Position numbers and translations under genes: made by a program. Positions 1 through 62,456 of a stretch of DNA of 64,000 bases are shown in pieces (the stretch's first letter is position 1; every line of letters begins with the position of its first letter). The notes beneath the pieces are model-generated. The model was not told the DNA's origin, searched no databases, and worked only from the letters and a program-made list of their open reading frames with translations. Origin of the DNA: Escherichia phage vB_EcoM-172859UKE1; the sequence record MZ234025.1; one strand, written 5' to 3'.

Positions 1-18
1 AAGGGACCGAAGTCCCTT
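1..18 (-). terminator. hairpin immediately downstream of gene 37 (tail of element beyond window)
   Basis: AAGGGAC-CGAA-GTCCCTT; UUCG loop on the transcribed strand. Confidence 0.45.
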
Positions 19-22
19 CTCC

Positions 23-3000
23 TTATGCTAAACGAACGATATAGTTAAAAGCAACGTTTTTAACCGTGTTTTCTGTATTTCCTGTGGCATTTACAGTTAT
101 TGTATGACCATGAGAACCAATCGCTACCGAATGAGAGTGGGCACCAATACCTACAGTATGTGTATGGGCACCAATACCAACGGTGTGGGCATGGTTACCC
201 GTAGAGCTAGTAGTACCAGACCAAGAGTGTGTATGGTTACCTTCTGTTGACGACTTTGCAATATATTGGCTTGTACCAGGCACGACACCGTTGCTTAGGC
301 CAAAACCAACAACCTGGGTTCCGCTAATTTGAGTAGATCCATTAGGATATATTCCTGTTGGTTGATTATTAGGACCCCTTGGGCCGGTCTGTGAGTGTTG
401 GTGGTTCCCTGCTGCGCCAGTAGTACCGCTTACTGTATGGTTATGGTTACCCGTTGTATTGCTAGTCTTCGTACCATAATCAAAACTTGAAGATGTTTTA
501 GTACCGTAATCAAAACTAGAAGTGGTTTTAGTACCCAAATCTGTGCTTGATGCACTTGCACTATGGCTATGTGACTTAACACCGTCTGCTTCTGTACTCA
601 ATACAGCACGCCCCGATGGTTTACCCTTGATAGTTTGACCACGCATATCAGGCAGAGCGCCGGAAGGATACACCGCAGCTAACTTAGGATACAAGCCAAC
701 ATCAAAGGTTTGACCTTCCATAATAGCGTAACCGTCAGGAGGAGTATCCGTTGGCCAAGGAATCGGAGCACCAATTGGGTAACTCGACACAATATCCGTC
801 TTAAGGTTATTTATTGTGGTATTCAAGTTAGCAAAGTTGCCAGAACCACCGGTGATATTACCATCAGTACCGAATTGAGCATTACCAACTTTTAATGGTT
901 TTGAAAAAAGAACATCGTCGGTTCTAAATGCAACCCCATGACCTAATGCATTATTATATAAGTTAAGTTCATCTGAACTACCACTCCCATTACCAACGTA
1001 CCATTTAACCGTATTAGCTTTTTTACCCTGAATATAAACAGCGTTGGTCAATGAAGCCGAGTTAATAATAAGCGCGGCGTTATTAGCGTTAATTGTGATA
1101 GCTTGCCCTGATGTTGTTCCACTAGTTTCTACTTTAAATCTTCCACCACCGATATCAACATCATGATCCATGGAAACTTTACCAGTACTTAATGTAATAT
1201 AGAACGGACGTAAATTAGAAATACCACCTGATTCACCAGCATTCTGTGGAGTTGGAATAATATAAAGCTTATCTTCAGAACGACGGAAAATAGCACCGTA
1301 TTCGGCATTCCAAATTCTTAATGCATCAGCAGTTCCGCCAATTTTAACTTGTCCAGTAATAGAAGAACCACCTTGGACAAACAAACCGTTAGACATAGTA
1401 ACATTGCCACCAAAAGAACCTGTACCGGAGGCACTTATATTACCAAGGCCTATAATATGGCCTGTTTCGACAGTTCCGTTAAATTTAAAGTTAACCGGAC
1501 CTACTGTTTGACCTGACGCAGGATTAGTGCGTTGTGCATAAAAATAATATCCATGTCCGTCAGCTACTTCAAAAACTGTTTCACGAGTACGATCGCCAGA
1601 TGCGTTAAATGAATTACCCCACGCTTTAATAGATACATAACTTTTATTCTGACCTTCACGAGTACCACCAGCCCACAGTATAGTTTTAGTGCCATCTGCT
1701 GCTGTAGGAGCGTCAAGTTGAATACCGTCGGGTCTAGCACCAGTAAGAACTAATCCGTTATCAAATTTAATTCTTTGTATTGAAGATACTGTTCCGTTAG
1801 CATAAAACCGTACGTTATTAGAGCCAGTTACCAATTTTAAAATACCAGGGTTAACTTCCATGCCTTCTTGAGTATTAATATTAGTTTGGCCTTTACCGCG
1901 GAAATAGTGGGACAATTTCCCGCCGGAGTTATAACCGATATGAGTTTGCCCATCACCTGCGTTATTCACATCAGCCTGAGTTTGGACTGATAAAAGAGCG
2001 GCATTAGTACCGGGCATAATCCATGTAGCGCCCTGGTCTTCTGAACGACCAAATAATCCTTTGCGTGTACTGCGGAAACTGTCAGGTGTAATAGATGCAA
2101 TAGAATTCCAATTACCTACTAAATCATAAACACCCTGCTTAACGTATTTTAAACCAGTGGCGGCATCGCCCAAAGCAATATATCTTTCTCCCATTGGAGT
2201 AGGAGAACCGTAGTTGTTAGTATTTTCGTCAGCAGTAATTGTGCCAATAGCAAGTGAACGACGTAATACCATGGCGCCATCATTACGAAGACCCATTAAT
2301 TTAGTAGTAGGTGTATTTCCATTCCACCAAGAAATTTCATCATTCTTACCAGTTTGAGCTGAAGCGATTTCATGGTAAATGGTTCCGCCTGATTTAGCTC
2401 GAACTTTACGAAGATAATTTATACCATTTTCTTCGCCTGTTCCAGGATAAACATATTGAACTAATGATTGCGAATCGTATTGTCCAAATGCTTTTGTATC
2501 AAAAACTATAGTTTTTGTATTAATCTGCGGAGCAGAAACTACCCCAGTAGCTGAATTAATATTACCAGAAGCAGAAATATTACCTTTGCTGACAAATAAA
2601 TCGCCCGTGTCAACTTGGAAATTACCATTTCTATTAAAAGTCCAGTATTTTGAAGTCCCAGTTTCATCGATATAATGGAACTTAAAACTGCCTTCAGCAA
2701 CCAATGTACCCGCTGAAAAAGTACCATCTTTATAACGTTGCTTAATTAACGGGTTATATTCTGAAGTAGCGGTTGTTGCGGAAATATCCATGAAAATAGG
2801 GGCTTTTGCTGTGTGTTGACCAGCCCAAGAACCAACTCCGGTGGCCTTATAAGCAAATTCGATATATCCACCAGATGCAACATTTTGTGAGCCTATTAAA
2901 TTAAATGTACCTGTCTGAGTATAGTTACCTACATGAGTTACATTACCGTTAATATCCCCGCCCTTAGCAAAGCCTAGGCTAATAATATTACCGAGGTCAT

Positions 3001-3124
3001 CTTTAGTAAAAAGAGTTCGATCTTTTAAGTTTATCGCTAATTCGCCTTCGGCTAATTGTGCTGCAGTAGGATTAACTCCTGCCACTTTGCTTCTTTTAAA
3101 TTGTATCTGTTTTAATGTAGCCAT
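23..3124 (-). CDS. 37: long tail fiber distal subunit, receptor-binding (T4 gp37-like)
   Basis: 1033-aa ORF; C-terminal His-rich HxH repeats ([41 protein letters not shown]) and ...NYIVRLA terminus typical of T4-type gp37; position after 34-35-36. Confidence 0.93.
471..541. repeat. 30-bp tandem repeat (2.3 copies) inside gene 37 distal region
   Basis: gtaccataatcaaaacttgaagatgtttta / gtaccgtaatcaaaactagaagtggtttta / gtacccaaatc; encodes TKT(S/T)SSFDYG repeats. Confidence 0.85.
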
Positions 3125-17313: not shown

Positions 17314-18489
17314 ATGAGTACAGTTTTTAACACACAACAAGTCGATGTTTTGAATGAACCGATGTTCTTTGGTTCTGGTCTTGGCCTCGCACGTTACGAT
17401 ATTCAGCGTCATAAAGTTTTTGAAGAACTTATCGAAAAGCAGCTCTCGTTCTTTTGGCGTCCCGAGGAAGTAAACTTGATGTTGGATTCGGCCCAGTTTA
17501 ATAAGCTTCCACAGTTCCAACAGGACATCTTTACAAACAATCTTAAGTATCAATCATTATTAGATTCTATCCAAGGCAGGGCCCCATCTGCGGTACTTAT
17601 GGCACTGATTTCTGACCCTTCATTAGATACATGGGTTGCAACATGGACATTCAGTGAAACTATTCACTCTCGTTCGTATACTCATATTATGCGAAATCTT
17701 TATACCGATCCGTCCAAAGTATTTGATGAGATTGTATTAGACGAAGCAATCATGAAACGAGCTGAATCAATAGGTAAATATTACGATGATGTTCTAGTCA
17801 AGACTCGTCATTGGGAAAATGCTAAGGAAAATTATGAGTGTTCAATAGGCTCATGCCAGCAGAATGATATTGAGATGTACGAAGAAATAATGTTTAACGC
17901 CAAGCGTGATTTAATGAAGTCTCTTTATCTCTGTTTGCATGTTATCAACGCCTTAGAAGCTATTCGTTTTTACGTATCATTTGCGTGTACTTTCAACTTC
18001 CATAAAAATATGGAAATTATGGAAGGTAATGCAAAGATTATGAAGTTCATTGCTCGTGACGAACAACTCCACCTCAAGGGTACTCAGTACATTATCCGTC
18101 AACTTCAATCTGGTACTGATGGTGATGAGTGGGTTCGAATTGCTAAAGAATGTGAACAAGAAGCAGTTGACATTTTTATGGAAGTAAATAGTCAAGAGAA
18201 GGAATGGGCTGCACACCTCTTTAAAGATGGTACATGTCCAGGTATCAATACGCAGAGTATGTGTGCTTTTGTTGATTACTTGACTGTGTCTCGTATGAAA
18301 CAGTGTGGTTTGCCATGTCCAATTACTGATGCTCCGACCAAGCATCCGTATCCTTGGATTCGTGAATATCTGAACTCTGATTTAGTTCAAGCAGCTCCTC
18401 AGGAAGTTGAAATCAGTTCTTATCTTGTCGCACAAATTGATAATGATGTAGACCAAAATGTAATCAATTCATACAAAAAATATTTCTAA
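17314..18489 (+). CDS. nrdB: aerobic ribonucleotide reductase small subunit (intron-less)
   Basis: 391-aa continuous ORF, size and position of T4 NrdB; no intron. Confidence 0.94.
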   Translation: MSTVFNTQQVDVLNEPMFFGSGLGLARYDIQRHKVFEELIEKQLSFFWRPEEVNLMLDSAQFNKLPQFQQDIFTNNLKYQSLLDSIQGRAPSAVLMALISDPSLDTWVATWTFSETIHSRSYTHIMRNLYTDPSKVFDEIVLDEAIMKRAESIGKYYDDVLVKTRHWENAKENYECSIGSCQQNDIEMYEEIMFNAKRDLMKSLYLCLHVINALEAIRFYVSFACTFNFHKNMEIMEGNAKIMKFIARDEQLHLKGTQYIIRQLQSGTDGDEWVRIAKECEQEAVDIFMEVNSQEKEWAAHLFKDGTCPGINTQSMCAFVDYLTVSRMKQCGLPCPITDAPTKHPYPWIREYLNSDLVQAAPQEVEISSYLVAQIDNDVDQNVINSYKKYF

Positions 18490-34845: not shown

Positions 34846-34869
34846 GGGAGACGTTGTCTCCCTTTTTTT
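34846..34869. terminator. bidirectional terminator between the alt-distal ORF and gene 54
   Basis: GGGAGAC-GTT-GTCTCCC then T7; convergent genes on both sides. Confidence 0.7.
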
Positions 34870-41797: not shown

Positions 41798-42195
41798 TGT
41801 CTAATATCAATAAACTTTATTCAGATATCGATCCAGAAATGCGTATGGATTGGAACAAGGACGTTGCTCGTTCTGTAGGACTTCGTTCTATTAAAAATAG
41901 TCTTCTTGGCATAGTGACAACTAGAAAAGGCTCACGCCCCTTCGACCCTGAATTTGGATGCGATTTGGTCGACGAACTTTTCGAGAACATGACACCGCTT
42001 ACAGCCGATACGATTGAGCGTAATATCCAGGCAGCCGTCCGTAACTATGAGCCGCGCATCGACAAACTTTCTGTAAGTGTAACGCCAGTATATGATGACT
42101 ATACAGTTATAGTAGAGATTAGATTTTCGGTCGTAGATAATCCTGATGATATCGAACAAATCAAACTTCAGTTAGCATCAAGCAATAGAGTGTAA
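41797..42195 (+). CDS. 25: baseplate wedge subunit gp25
   Basis: 132 aa, same as T4 gp25. Confidence 0.9.
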   Translation: MSNINKLYSDIDPEMRMDWNKDVARSVGLRSIKNSLLGIVTTRKGSRPFDPEFGCDLVDELFENMTPLTADTIERNIQAAVRNYEPRIDKLSVSVTPVYDDYTVIVEIRFSVVDNPDDIEQIKLQLASSNRV

Positions 42196-42220
42196 TGCTT
42201 CAAGGCAACCTATGTATAAT
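42196..42220 (+). promoter_or_regulatory. MotA-dependent middle promoter (uvsY)
   Basis: TGCTTCA 42196-42202, 12-nt spacer, TATAAT 42215-42220. Confidence 0.65.
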
Positions 42221-42275
42221 GGTTTTAGGTCCTTCCGATACAGCCGGGAGATTATTAGTTAAAAGAGAGAATATT

Positions 42276-42689
42276 ATGAAGCTGGAAGATTTACAGGAAG
42301 AGTTAGACGCAGACTTAGCTATTGATACGACAAAGTTGCAATATGAGACGGCGAATAATGTTAAGTTATACAGCAAATGGCTACGTAAGCACTCATTTAT
42401 TCGTAAAGAAATGTTGCGTATAGAGACTCAGAAGAAAACTGCTCTAAAAGCAAGATTAGACTACTACTCGGGACGAGGTGACGGTGATGAATTCAGTATG
42501 GACCGATACGAGAAATCTGAAATGAAAACTGTCCTGGCTGCAGATAAAGATGTGCTTAAAATAGAGACTACTTTACAATACTGGGGAATTTTACTTGAGT
42601 TCTGTAGTGGTGCACTTGACGCAGTTAAATCTCGTAGTTTTGCACTTAAACATATCCAGGATATGCGAGAATTTGAAGCGGGGCAATAA
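42276..42689 (+). CDS. uvsY: recombination mediator UvsY
   Basis: 137 aa from ATG 42276 (MKLEDLQEEL...), matches T4 UvsY; MotA middle promoter upstream; track start 42195 is an upstream in-frame ATG. Confidence 0.95.
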   Translation: MKLEDLQEELDADLAIDTTKLQYETANNVKLYSKWLRKHSFIRKEMLRIETQKKTALKARLDYYSGRGDGDEFSMDRYEKSEMKTVLAADKDVLKIETTLQYWGILLEFCSGALDAVKSRSFALKHIQDMREFEAGQ

Positions 42690-43118: not shown

Positions 43119-43168
43119 CCTTTTTGCCTATGGTTTTTGGCCCTTCCAAAAAGGTCGGGCCTTTTTTT
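43119..43168. terminator. GC-rich stem-loops with A/T runs between convergent uvsY.-2 ORF and uvsW.1
   Basis: CCTTTTTG...GGCCC...CAAAAAGG...GGGCC then T7. Confidence 0.45.
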
Positions 43169-43429: not shown

Positions 43430-44944
43430 TTATAAATTAATTGTTTTCATTACATAGTTAAATTTCTCATCAGCGTAACGTTGGATACGATCAATACCGT
43501 GTTTTAACAAGTAATTAAGATGAGTATACTTCTTTTTAGTATTTAATGATTTAGGTTTTACACCTGCGTCATCTATGAGATCCCAAACTGTAGCAACAGC
43601 TTTAGAACCGTGCTTACGAAGCACACGACCTACGGTTTGAAGTACGATAATTTTTGATTTAACACCATGGGCAAAAATAACATGATGAAGATTCTTGACT
43701 GAAATACCAGTAGAGAATACTCCATATGATGCGACAATAATAATGCCTTTACCATTTTCTGCCATGACTTTAAGCGCGTTACGTGTTTCAGTATCAACTT
43801 CACCTGATACGTAATAAACTTTTTCGTATCCAAGCTCTTTAATAGCTTCAAATATTTCTTTACCGTGTGTAACGTGTTTAAACATTACAAAGGCGTTCTC
43901 GTCTTTCTTAGCCAATTTGACCGAAAGTTGAGCAATCCACTTTGTACGACGTTTTAGTCCGGTAATAATTTTAACTTCTTCTTGGTATGTTTTACCTTTT
44001 AATTTAATGGCGAATTCGTCCGGATAACGAAGGAAAATACTATTAATCTTAAGCTCAGTTACCTGTCCGTCTTCCATTAATTTAGACGTGCTAACAGGAC
44101 GGAAGATTTCGCCGAACATGCCTACGTACTGCATTACATTGGCTTTTCCGTCTCTTAATGAGCCAGATAAACCGAATTTAAACATGCAATTATTTAATCC
44201 TGAGATGATTGAAGAAATACTTTTGCCTGTTGCTAAGTGGCATTCATCGTTCATCATCATACCGAACTGAGAGAACCATTCTTTAGGCTGCTTAACTACC
44301 GTTTGCCATGTGCCAACAATAATTGGAGCGTCGTTTTTAGATTTGTCCGCTTTATCAGCACCACCGCCAATTTTCTTAATCATCGAATGACTAAACAAGC
44401 GATAATCAACAAAATCATTAGCCATCTGGGTTGTCAATGCTGTTGTAGGGACGATAATGAGAATTTTACCTTCATAGTTCTCTAGATAATACCGAGCTAA
44501 AAGTGCTTGGATTAGTGATTTACCTGCTGATGTCGGAAGGTTTAAAATTCGACGACGATTAACTAGCCCTTCATATACTGCATCTTTTTGATACCAATGT
44601 GGTTCGATTTTGGCGTTGCCTGAATAAATTTCTTGTTTAGAAAGCCATGCGTCAAAATCTTCCCTGGTAAGGTCTTCAGTCTCAAAGATTTTAGGGTCAA
44701 TCCATACAGAATAACTCATATTGTTACAGAACTTTTTTATTTGTCCTACAAGTCCATATGGTAACAAACGATTGTAATCTAAAAGTCGAATTCTACCGTC
44801 CCATTGCCCATAGCGATATTTTGGGTTAAATTTATACCCGTCAGCTTCAAAGCTAAAAAAGTCACGAAGTTCGTAAAACGTACTTTCGTCGCATTCAATG
44901 CGCACGTGACTAAAATCATGAAAATGTACTTTAATGTCAGTCAT
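43430..44944 (-). CDS. uvsW: DNA/RNA helicase UvsW
   Basis: 504 aa; helicase motifs incl. DECH box (MMMNDECHLATG) and PTSAGKS; late promoter upstream. Confidence 0.93.
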   Translation of the reverse strand: MTDIKVHFHDFSHVRIECDESTFYELRDFFSFEADGYKFNPKYRYGQWDGRIRLLDYNRLLPYGLVGQIKKFCNNMSYSVWIDPKIFETEDLTREDFDAWLSKQEIYSGNAKIEPHWYQKDAVYEGLVNRRRILNLPTSAGKSLIQALLARYYLENYEGKILIIVPTTALTTQMANDFVDYRLFSHSMIKKIGGGADKADKSKNDAPIIVGTWQTVVKQPKEWFSQFGMMMNDECHLATGKSISSIISGLNNCMFKFGLSGSLRDGKANVMQYVGMFGEIFRPVSTSKLMEDGQVTELKINSIFLRYPDEFAIKLKGKTYQEEVKIITGLKRRTKWIAQLSVKLAKKDENAFVMFKHVTHGKEIFEAIKELGYEKVYYVSGEVDTETRNALKVMAENGKGIIIVASYGVFSTGISVKNLHHVIFAHGVKSKIIVLQTVGRVLRKHGSKAVATVWDLIDDAGVKPKSLNTKKKYTHLNYLLKHGIDRIQRYADEKFNYVMKTINL

Positions 44945-44994: not shown

Positions 44995-45663
44995 ATGATC
45001 GATAAAGACTATATTGAAGAGTTACGTGCTCTTTCTGATAAAAAGGAAGCCAAAGCTAAACTGTTTGAATATGCGGAACAATTTGGCATTAGTGTTAAGA
45101 AAACAAAATCATTCGATAATATTGTTATTGATATCGAAGAAGCTCTTAACGCACTGGCTGATGAACCATTACCTGAAACTGATGGATTATCTATCACTGA
45201 TTTAATTACTGCCGCAGACGATGTGGACGGTGTTAATTTCACCAACGAAGAAGTTAAAGAAGAAGCTATTCTGTTGTTTGATTCTCCAACAGAACAAGTT
45301 GAAGTATTAGAAGTTGTCGAACAAGAAAAAGAATTCGACCATGATAAATTCGAAGAAGCAATTACTCAGGTTGTTGAATCTGAAAAAGAGCCTGAGTCAG
45401 AGGTAAATAAAGAAGTAAAATTTGTTCTGCCTGAAAATTTTAGTCCTACGCTCATTAAATTAGGCAAAGGCCTAGGATATGTTACTGTTCCTTGGTGGAT
45501 TTATCAATGGATAGCCGAAACCCCAGATTGGAAATCTCGCCCAACTAGTTTTGTGCATGCTTCTGCTCACCAAACATTATTTAGCTTAATTTATTATATT
45601 AATCGCGATGGATCAGTTCTAATTCGTGAAACTCGTAATTCTTCTTTCGTAACATTAAAATAA
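44995..45663 (+). CDS. inh: Inh-like acidic protein (prohead protease inhibitor position)
   Basis: 222 aa, acidic, position between uvsW and hoc. Confidence 0.55.
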   Translation: MIDKDYIEELRALSDKKEAKAKLFEYAEQFGISVKKTKSFDNIVIDIEEALNALADEPLPETDGLSITDLITAADDVDGVNFTNEEVKEEAILLFDSPTEQVEVLEVVEQEKEFDHDKFEEAITQVVESEKEPESEVNKEVKFVLPENFSPTLIKLGKGLGYVTVPWWIYQWIAETPDWKSRPTSFVHASAHQTLFSLIYYINRDGSVLIRETRNSSFVTLK

Positions 45664-45672
45664 GGATAACTT

Positions 45673-47090
45673 ATGGCTTTTACAGTTGATATAACTCCTA
45701 AAACACCTACTGGAGTTATAGATCAGACTCAGCAGTTTACTGCTACACCCAGTGGTCAAACTGGAGATGGACCTATTACATATGCTTGGACTGTAGATGA
45801 TGTTCCACAAGATGGAGCTGAAGCAACTTTTAGTTATGTACTAAAAGGACCTGCCGGTCAAAAGACTATTAAAGTAGTTGCAACAAACCCAGTCCTAGAC
45901 GCTGAAGCTGAAACAGCAGAAGCTACTACAACTATCACAGTTCAAAATAAGACACAAACGACCACCTTAGCTGTAACTCCTAATAGCCCTGACGCTGGAG
46001 TAATTGGAACAGCTATTGAATTTACTGCTACTTTAGCTTCGCAGCCATCGGGCGCAAACGCTACTTATCAATGGTATGTAGATGATTCTCCTGTGGGCGA
46101 AGCAACTAACGCTACGTTCAATTACACTCCTGCCGAAAGCGGGGTAAAAAGAATTAAGTGTGTGGCTCAAGTAACTGCGACAGATTATGATGCACTAAGC
46201 GTTACTTCTAATGAAGTATCACTGACTGTTAATAAAAAGACACAGACAACTACTTTGGCAGTAACTCCCGATAGTCCTTCAGCTGGAGTAATTGGAACCC
46301 CAGTTCAATTTACTGCTGCCTTAGCTTCTCAACCAGTTGGAGCGTCTGCTACGTATCAGTGGTATGTAGATGATTCACAAGTTGGTGGAGAAACTAACTC
46401 TACATTTAGCTATACTCCAACTACAAGTGGAGTTAAAAAATTAAATGCGTAGCCCAAGTAACCGCGGCAGATTATGATGCAAAGGAAGTTACTTCTAATG
46501 AAGTATCATTAACGGTTAATAAGAAGACAATGAATCCACAGGTTACATTGACTCCTCCTTCTATTAACGTTCAGCAAGATGCTTCAGCTACATTTACCGC
46601 TAATGTCACTGATGCTCCAGAAGAAGCGCAAATTGCGTATTCATGGAAGAAAGATTCTTCTCCTGTAGAAGGATCAACTAATGTATATACCGTTGATACC
46701 TCATCTATTGGAAGTCAAACTATTGAAGTTACTGCAACTGTTACTGCTACTGATTATGATAGCAAAACTATTACAGCAGAAGGTCAAGTTCAGGTAACTG
46801 ATAAAGTTGCTCCAGAACCAGAAGGTGAATTACCTTATGTTCATCCTCTTCCACATCGTACTTCAGCTTACATCTGGTGCGGTTGGTGGGTTATGGATGA
46901 AATCCAAAAAATGACTGAAGAAGGTAAAGATTGGAAAACTGAAGATCCAGATAGTAAATACTACCTGCATCGTTACACTCTTCAGAAGATGATGAAAGAC
47001 TACCCAGAAGTTGATGTTCAAGAATCACGTAATGGATACATCATCCATAAAACTGCTTTGGAAACTGGTATCATCTATACATATCCATAA
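45673..47090 (+). pseudogene. hoc: hoc (outer capsid decoration protein) with tandemly duplicated Ig-like domain, split by -1 frame change in an A6 run at 46435-46440
   Basis: ORF 45673-46452 and frame open 46437-47090 join into one Hoc-like protein if the A6 run is read as A7 (V-K-K-I-K-C-V-A-Q-V-T-A restored, matching repeat copy 1). Confidence 0.7.
45949..46523. repeat. tandem direct repeat of ~288 bp (2 copies, ~80% identical) inside hoc
   Basis: Copy 1 45949-46236, copy 2 46237-46523; each encodes one Ig-like domain. Confidence 0.85.
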
Positions 47091-47753: not shown

Positions 47754-48752
47754 ATGTTTAAGAAATACAGCAGTCTTGAAAACCACTACAACTCTAAGTT
47801 TATTGAAAAACTCTACACTAATGGTTTGACTACTGGTGTTTGGGTAGCACGTGAGAAAATCCATGGGACCAACTTCTCGTTAATAATTGAACGTGACAAC
47901 GTCACATGCGCCAAGCGCACAGGCCCTATTCTTCCAGCAGAAGATTTTTATGGTTATGAAATCGTACTCAAGAAGTATGATAAAGCTATTAAAGCCGTTC
48001 AGGAATTCATGTACACAGCTCGAGCCGTATCATATCAAGTATTCGGTGAATTCGCTGGTGGTGGAATCCAGAAAGGTGTTGACTACGGTGAAAAAGATTT
48101 TTATGTGTTCGATATCCTTATCAATACAGAAAGTGGTGATAATACGTATTTGACTGATTACGAAATGCAAGATTTCTGTAATGAATTCGGTTTTAAAATG
48201 GCACCAATGCTTGGTCGTGGCACATTTGATGCTCTTATCATGATTCCAAACGACCTTGATTCCGTCTTAGCCGCTTATAATGCTACAGCGTCAGAAGACC
48301 TTGTCGAAGCAAATAATTGTGTATTTGATGCTAATGTTATTGGCGATAATACGGCAGAAGGTTATGTTCTGAAGCCTTGTTTCCCTAAATGGCTGCCAAA
48401 CGGTACTCGTGTAGCTATTAAGTGCAAGAACTCTAAATTCAGTGAAAAGAAAAAGTCTGATAAGCCTATTAAAACTCAGGTTCCATTAACCGAAATTGAC
48501 AAAAACTTGCTTGATGTTCTAGCTTGTTATGTTACATTAAATCGTGTTAATAATGTGATTTCTAAGATTGGGACTGTAACGCCAAAAGATTTTGGCAAAG
48601 TGATGGGATTGACTGTTCAAGATATTCTGGAAGAAACTTCTCGTGAAGGTATTGTATTAACATCATCTGATAATCCGAATCTTGTTAAGAAAGAATTAGT
48701 CCGAATGGTGCAAGATGTTCTGCGTCCTGCATGGATTGAATTAGTATCATAA
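47754..48752 (+). CDS. rnlB: RNA ligase 2
   Basis: 332 aa; KIHGTN nucleotidyl-lysine motif, [22 protein letters not shown]-terminus, matches T4 Rnl2. Confidence 0.95.
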
Positions 48753-61690: not shown

Positions 61691-62455
61691 TTAATTCATA
61701 AACCCATCGTCAAATGGTGAATTTTGTCTACCACGGTTGTTAACTACTACATACGGCTCAACGTATTCACTTGCCTCTGAATTGATTTGCTCAACTTCAG
61801 AATATTCATCGATATTAATGTCATGGATACCGTCAAGATTTCTAACAGGGTTAAGTTCCAAGTCACTAAATTCAGGTATATTGATACCTTCATTTTTCTG
61901 AAGCACCGGATTGATTTCTTCGCCAGAGTAAATAAACTTGCCTGCAGTAATTTTACGAATCGCATTTTTACCTACTTGATAGAATGGGTCATATGGTTCA
62001 ACCCAGTTAATCTCAAACAAACTGTTGTCCATTGGGAAGTATATTAAATCACCTTCCTTGGGCTCCTGATTGTTGACCTGGTGTTTGAAAAGACCCGGGT
62101 TAATAGATAATGTAACTTCGTCTTGAACTTGCATTCCGAAGTTGCTGAAGAACGATTTCGCTCCTTCATAACCTTCAAATGAGTTCAGATATGCCGCAAA
62201 TTTCCATGCTTTAGTAAATTTATTTTTAAGGTCCTCACCAAAGATAAGGTCCACAGCAACATATTCACGTGGAACATAAAAACATTCAATACCGCGCATT
62301 TGTATGCTTTCTGCCACTAGAACATCGGCTAATGTCTGACTATTCTCATAATTATTAAAATTGACAAATGGATTGAGGATTTCGGTCTCATTTGTCTGAG
62401 AATACCCACCACGATTTTCTAGCTTGGCGAAAAGATTTTTATCATAAGTTGCCAT
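61691..62455 (-). CDS. 14: neck protein gp14
   Basis: 254 aa, synteny. Confidence 0.88.
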
Positions 62456-62456
62456 A

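Follow-up and report, generated by a model that had tools for sequence, protein, structure and literature searches.

Why the head decoration gene hoc should appear as two separate ORFs in vB_EcoM-172859UKE1, a Mosigvirus from wastewater (MZ234025; PMC8614997), is the question raised by the locus between inh and 24.3. We addressed it within a 64-kb stretch of this genome (the window from here on). A previous interpretation made from the letters alone (the sequence-only reading) had left three explanations side by side for the split: a homopolymer sequencing error, a real frameshift (inactivating or phase-variable) affecting a dispensable decoration protein, or a slippage-dependent expression site. 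Among these the inactivating frameshift fits best, and with a probability of roughly three in four we take the locus to be a replication-slippage null allele of a five-domain hoc that leaves capsids without Hoc. This is a known gene in a known long variant, with an ordinary loss-of-function frameshift.

Anatomy of the split gene

Upstream of hoc lie uvsW (43430-44944, minus strand) and inh (44995-45663), and downstream 24.3, 24.2 and rnlB (47754-48752). The order inh, hoc, 24.3/24.2/rnlB is the T4 hoc neighbourhood, as annotated in teqskov, mobillu and moskry, and the split gene thus occupies the position of hoc. Both ORFs (Table 1) correspond by exact sequence to deposited proteins of this phage, and both match PHROG 1149, 'Hoc-like head decoration', ORF1 with E = 5.7e-59 and ORF2 with E = 3.9e-78. 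ORF1 ends within the third Ig domain, in ...SGVKKLNA and a stop, and lacks the capsid-binding domain; ORF2, a putative product, starts at an internal Met with a weak AAGAAG Shine-Dalgarno-like motif 3 nt upstream. No uninterrupted ORF links the Ig domains to the capsid-binding domain. Given that the frame is broken at the A6 run and a TAG follows, the locus is filed as a hoc null allele or pseudogene.

Table 1. Features of the hoc locus, in window coordinates.
Feature	Position	Strand	Evidence
hoc, five-domain 'large Hoc' form, probable frameshifted null allele	45673..47090	+	ORFs, T4 Hoc homology, PHROG 1149, synteny
ORF1, 259 aa (QZI80110.1)	45673..46452	+	Ig domain 1, repeat copy 1 and ~70% of copy 2
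ORF2, 186 aa (QZI80111.1)	46530..47090	+	One Ig domain and the capsid-binding domain
Ig-domain repeat copy 1, 288 nt, aa 93-188	45949..46236	+	Direct repeats, Pfam
Ig-domain repeat copy 2, 287 nt, aa 189-284 of the repaired protein	46237..46523	+	Direct repeats, T4 alignment
Copy-1 site homologous to the A6 run, AAAAAGAA (V-K-R-I), interrupted run, in frame here	46146..46153	+	Sequence
A6 run, site of the -1 frameshift	46435..46440	+	Sequence
Premature TAG in the shifted frame	46450..46452	+	Sequence
Intrinsic-terminator-like hairpin AAGGGGCTTCGGCCCCTT with T-rich tail, just 3′ of the hoc stop codon	47095..47122	+	Sequence

The gene is built around two adjacent repeats of about 288 bp, an observation of the sequence-only reading that direct-repeat analysis confirms. 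Over the first 221 nt (repeat family D1, 45937-46157 versus 46225-46445) the copies are spaced 288 nt apart at 73% identity, and over the last 95 nt (D2, 46148-46242 versus 46435-46529) they are spaced 287 nt apart at 82% identity. The repeat register falls by one base near 46435-46445, between D1 and D2, and this change in spacing means that one base is missing from copy 2 in that interval; copy 2 measures 288 nt in intact relatives. As proteins the copies are identical at 77 of 96 positions. TRF reports none of the hoc repeats because the copies are too diverged.

Inserting a single A at the A6 run in silico opens one ORF of 472 aa. The proposed one-nucleotide deficit in the A-run, the five Ig-type domains and the fusion of both ORFs by one added A are all borne out; the length of the fused protein had been put slightly too high, at about 475 aa. 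The repair does restore the frame, but not, as had been suggested, the very motif of copy 1, which reads VKRIKC and not VKKIKC. Residues 1-111 and 189-472 of the repaired protein align to T4 Hoc (376 aa, 5vf3_Z) with E = 1.3e-219 (phmmer, PDB chains), the two stretches covering T4 residues 1-111 and 93-376. From this pattern the repaired protein is T4 Hoc in which Ig domain 2 is present twice, copy 2 being the repeat closest to T4 domain 2. Pfam PKD, PKD_4, Ig_2, Ig_3 and I-set match residues 111-165, 195-253 and 289-373, that is, both repeats and the next domain, and together with the alignment to T4 domains 1-3 they indicate a string of N-terminal Ig-like domains. Residues 377-472 are nearly identical to T4 Hoc 281-376, YIWCGWWVMDE included. 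Through this identity to T4 Hoc the predicted fold can safely be assigned.

The five-domain architecture had been set against the four domains of T4 as a point of note. Comparison with relatives shows that the longer form is widespread, known and not special to vB_EcoM-172859UKE1. The best 40 records match a full-length hoc query over 1416-1420 nt (mostly 1419) at 93.5-97.7% identity, and many five-domain records carry the annotation 'large head outer capsid protein', a name that dates to RB51 and the RB series. The 472-aa large Hoc of RB51, RB3, RB5-RB10, teqskov, mobillu, moskry and others has the same five-domain architecture and length, and the genes of teqskov, mobillu and moskry share 93-98% nucleotide identity with the window hoc over the whole gene. 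In the intact 1419-nt relatives examined, hoc is a single 'large head outer capsid protein' CDS. The difference lies in the run: RB51-type genes are intact at 1419 nt, whereas the window gene has 1418 nt, with A6 replacing A7 or AAAAGAA. T4 Hoc (highly immunogenic outer capsid protein, 376 aa; PDB 5vf3, 8t1x, 8t9r) is the same gene at the same locus, from which the window version differs by the extra Ig domain (a second domain 2) and the broken frame.

With 73-82% nucleotide identity between the copies and so many phages having it in common, the tandem duplication is evidently old. That the repeats are prone to copy-number change is plausible, since closely related phages include both four- and five-domain forms. 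In T4, F1 and T6 the one domain 2 mixes residues characteristic of copy 1 with others characteristic of copy 2, in no simple left-right order, a mosaic that speaks neither for nor against an origin of the four-domain form from the five-domain one by unequal crossing-over.

Reality of the A6 allele

Homopolymers are the classic place for consensus errors, the hoc run is the longest coding A-run in the region, and some split hoc records do come from poor assemblies, such as ECCR664 with its two homopolymer deletions in hoc. One could thus suppose that the missing A is a sequencing or assembly artefact and that the phage truly carries A7 and an intact 472-aa hoc. We consider this very unlikely. 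The genome was sequenced by Illumina MiSeq 2x300 (600-cycle, Nextera) and assembled with SPAdes (PMC8614997), a platform that is not error-prone at A7. In an alignment to moskry (98% identical), hoc is the only CDS with a frame-breaking indel among the ~60 genes of the window; the other indels that are not multiples of three are intergenic or compensated within a diverged patch. Assembly error induced by the repeats was considered and rejected, as the copies are too dissimilar, at 73-82% identity.

A further line of evidence comes from PM105 (MZ234041), a laboratory-bred recombinant that was sequenced separately in the same study (PMC8614997). PM105 is identical to the window at 46152-46239 and 46270-46735, without a single difference and with the A6 included. 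The tract common to both indicates that the A6 allele was passed on as DNA, and it is thus recorded in two assemblies. The same holds for other alleles: 101117BS1, an ancestor in the breeding, and its bred progeny PM107 and PM108 have an A6 of their own in common, and two T6 records, assembled to different lengths, agree on their +1. On these grounds the hoc frameshift is almost certainly real. Formally, a consensus error or a population with both A6 and A7 is still conceivable for 172859UKE1.

The hoc tract of PM105 (46152-46735) matches 172859UKE1 and is unlike that of all four declared ancestors of the breeding cocktail, each of which differs from the window at 24-41 sites within 46270-46735. 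An undeclared or contaminating parent must then have given this DNA. PM105 hoc holds two frameshifts: its copy-1 run contains a recombination junction with a +1, and copy 2 has the inherited A6.

Length alleles at the homologous A-runs

Run lengths were compared among relatives, in part with a 46-nt query centred on the run (blastn mode). At the copy 2 (or domain 2) run, the nearest in-frame haplotypes, in mobillu, F1, BEU50, ECO111 5-P and PST, have A7, the window and PM105 have A6, and NHEP10 and FN have A8; at the corresponding site the two independent T6 records have A5 where T4 has A4. At the copy 1 run, A7 is in frame in CHD16UKE1, G3G7 and at least 76 exact records, a frameshifted A6 is found in 101117BS1, its bred progeny PM107/PM108 and UPWr_E2, and PM105 has the +1 at its recombination junction. 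In most hoc alleles the run is interrupted and reads AAAAGAA or AAAACAA. The closest comparison is that of F1 (MT682712) with FN (MZ170041), for which the only difference over 49.9 kb (positions 86000-135900) is the hoc run, A7 versus A8; both come from one laboratory, both were sequenced by Illumina MiSeq, and their whole-genome lengths are 1 nt apart.

In IMG/VR and JGI metagenome contigs, pattern scans picked up just a handful of loci, all in frame and with interrupted runs, which gives no frequency for broken alleles beyond cultured isolates. A homology search with ORF1 returned almost only 376-aa Hocs and no truncated forms, and the clusters mix fragments with full-length proteins, so that protein searches yield no frequencies either. 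IME537 and REP4 are represented by truncated Hoc fragments in the protein collection.

T6 hoc (AP018814, MH550421) is frameshifted, reading GTTAAAAAGAATT with one A above T4 at locus positions of about 1515-1530; it is annotated as two CDSs in one record and not at all in the other. The T6 'Hoc-like' locus served as insertion site in a 2026 reporter-phage paper, which does not mention the frameshift (PMC13532311), and in the literature searched we found no mention of T6 lacking Hoc or of a proneness of hoc to frameshifts. FriedrichMiescher (MZ501066), annotated with 'Hoc part 1/part 2', has G5 in place of G4 six nt ahead of the A-run of copy 2, and PST (KF208315) has G4 changed to G5 (+1) near the hoc 5′ end. 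The poorly annotated ECCR664 assembly (OL631257) is the one with two homopolymer deletions in hoc.

The split hoc genes of T6, FN, NHEP10, 101117BS1/PM107/PM108, UPWr_E2, FriedrichMiescher and PST are thus, like that of the window, short-homopolymer frameshifts, and in all of these except PST the lesion falls within the segment of the Ig repeat coding for T-S-G-V-K-K/R-I. They differ from the window, and from each other, in run, direction (+1 or -1) and backbone; only PM105 has the allele of the window by descent. At the level of deposited genomes, then, the homologous A-runs of both Ig repeats are repeatedly struck in other phages and qualify as a mutational hotspot. Frameshift hotspots of the Streisinger type are known at A-runs of the T4 rII and lysozyme genes. 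Like the hoc events, those consist of +/-1 changes in A-runs of a T4-type phage with the same run hit recurrently, with the difference that they were defined genetically in laboratory crosses, whereas the hoc events are differences among deposited genomes and concern a structural decoration gene.

The remaining genes of the window put the A7 form in context. There are no coding homopolymers of 7 or more, and the only runs of 7 are two intergenic T7 (34863-34869 and 43162-43168), so that the hoc run in its A7 form would be the sole coding homopolymer of that length in 64 kb. Across 68 genes (long ORFs) we counted 75 Lys-Lys pairs, AAA making up 78% of Lys codons. Where an A flanks the pair, AAAAAA is used in 0 of 32 cases, versus 12 of 43 without a flanking A (Fisher P = 8e-4). 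This deficit despite the preference for AAA points to avoidance of runs of 7 or more in the genes of this phage, from which the A7 of hoc would stand out. Most simply, A7 would be highly slippage-prone and tolerated only because hoc is dispensable.

The same observations could be read more boldly, with the hoc poly-A tracts encoding V-K-K-I as reversible slippage switches that turn capsid display of Hoc, an immunogenic and mucus-binding fibre, on and off at high frequency, the window being caught in the OFF state. Several length alleles (A6/A7/A8) of a homopolymer inside an ORF do occur among close relatives at one run, and its counterpart in the neighbouring repeat varies too. Run length is all that separates F1 from FN over the compared 49.9 kb, one Illumina study of seven wastewater T4-type isolates includes two that are OFF, each at a different run, and A7 persists in hoc (at least 76 records) while runs of this kind are avoided in all other genes of the window. 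The broken alleles translated (window, PM105 and NHEP10) contain no further in-frame stop in their expected frames, which suggests recent events. The recurrent A6/A7/A8 alleles lend circumstantial support to phase variation. However, most hoc alleles are interrupted (AAAAGAA, AAAACAA) and hard to switch, no reversion is documented, some hoc frameshifts lie in other short runs (the G4 to G5 changes of FriedrichMiescher and PST), and K-K-I written with the preferred AAA codon yields A7 with no need for selection on mutability. Everything seen is accounted for by a hotspot in a dispensable gene, and we regard a switch as unlikely. If it were true, T4-like populations would always hold both decorated and bare particles, and, speculatively, a reversible run would amount to a mechanism of phase variation in a virulent phage.

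Consequences for Hoc

A replication-slippage null allele, the reading that we prefer, would arise by a short series of steps. One A would have been lost from A7 (GTT AAA AAA ATT, V-K-K-I) in repeat copy 2, most likely through strand slippage in DNA replication. Translation would then end after 259 aa and give a product without the capsid-binding domain, virions would carry no Hoc or traces at most, and the null allele could persist because hoc is dispensable for growth on plates. We infer the slippage mechanism, the Hoc-less phenotype and the A7 ancestral state from the comparisons given here. Deleting the G of a T4-type GTTAAAAGAATT allele would produce an identical A6 with no slippage at A7; against this, the nearest haplotypes have A7.

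The C-terminal domain is the capsid-binding part of Hoc (PMC10385173), and hoc null mutants are fully viable (PMC3012670). A precedent is T4 HAP1, a spontaneous Hoc-negative mutant in which C496T turns Gln166 into an ochre codon and no Hoc is found on the capsid (PMC10580926). Its stop and the site equivalent to that of the window share one beta-strand region of Ig domain 2, the stop being six codons downstream. The truncated HAP1 product, like ORF1, lacks the capsid-binding domain, and HAP1 virions lack Hoc (PMC10580926), a parallel from which, together with the domain content of ORF1, Hoc-less virions are expected here. The two differ in the lesion, HAP1 being a nonsense substitution in a four-domain gene and the window a -1 frameshift in a homopolymer.

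Full-length Hoc would nevertheless be made if the A6 allele were recoded by programmed -1 ribosomal frameshifting or transcriptional slippage, the slippage-dependent expression that the sequence-only reading had allowed for. A -1 shift on GUU AAA AAA UUA gives V-K-K-I-K-C-V-A-Q, exactly the intact protein, and A_AAA, decoded by tRNA-Lys, is known in E. coli as a weakly slippery tetranucleotide. The context argues otherwise. There is no in-frame canonical X XXY YYZ heptamer, the heptamer at the site being U AAA AAA with only A_AAA present, and no stimulatory structure was detected in the 90 nt downstream (46441-46530; MFE -14.2 kcal/mol, z = -0.63 versus shuffles). The GGAG is 2 nt away from the run on its 5′ side, whereas -1 stimulators as a rule lie further upstream; an A6 is also, as a rule, too short for efficient slippage by RNA polymerase. 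Within the collection searched, the split arrangement is found only in PM105, where it is present by descent, the other relatives examined being in frame or differently broken. Recoding of either kind is therefore extremely improbable. Less ambitiously, some Hoc-derived protein could reach the capsids if ribosomes slipped by -1 on A_AAA at a low level or initiated internally at the ORF2 Met. A late promoter inside the gene that would serve ORF2 was considered and rejected, as no + strand TATAAATA occurs within or just upstream of hoc. This T4 late-promoter motif occurs 18 times in the window versus 7.3 expected from shuffles, and none of the + strand copies lies in or immediately upstream of inh/hoc.

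With a null allele of this kind, vB_EcoM-172859UKE1 is probably Hoc-negative. The phage was isolated as a candidate for urinary-tract infection therapy, and Hoc is the main capsid antigen and a proposed mucus-adherence factor of T4-like phages; its absence would for these reasons alter immunogenicity and mucosal retention. The point added here is modest, namely that the frameshift sits at a recurrent slippage hotspot that also silences hoc in T6 and several therapeutic candidates, and no discussion of such a hotspot was found in the literature searched. Given that slippage nulls occur at the same few runs in several deposited genomes, classical T6 included, the state of the run is worth checking by users of T4-like phages in mucus-adherence, display or therapy work, and annotation pipelines would do better to flag a split hoc than to call two 'capsid and scaffold' proteins.

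The alignment to moskry also brought up differences elsewhere in the window. Between the neck genes gp14 and gp13, moskry has a 'putative endonuclease' gene of ~610 nt (41860-42469) that is absent at window position ~62445-62456, which looks as if a homing endonuclease were present in some of these phages and lacking in others. In the distal tail-fibre region (window 1-2600; ORF 23-3124, minus strand), the alignment is poor where there is one at all. Within nrdB (ORF 17314-18489), a patch at 17844-17900 has sequence unrelated to that of moskry, with a net change of -3 nt that leaves the ORF open.
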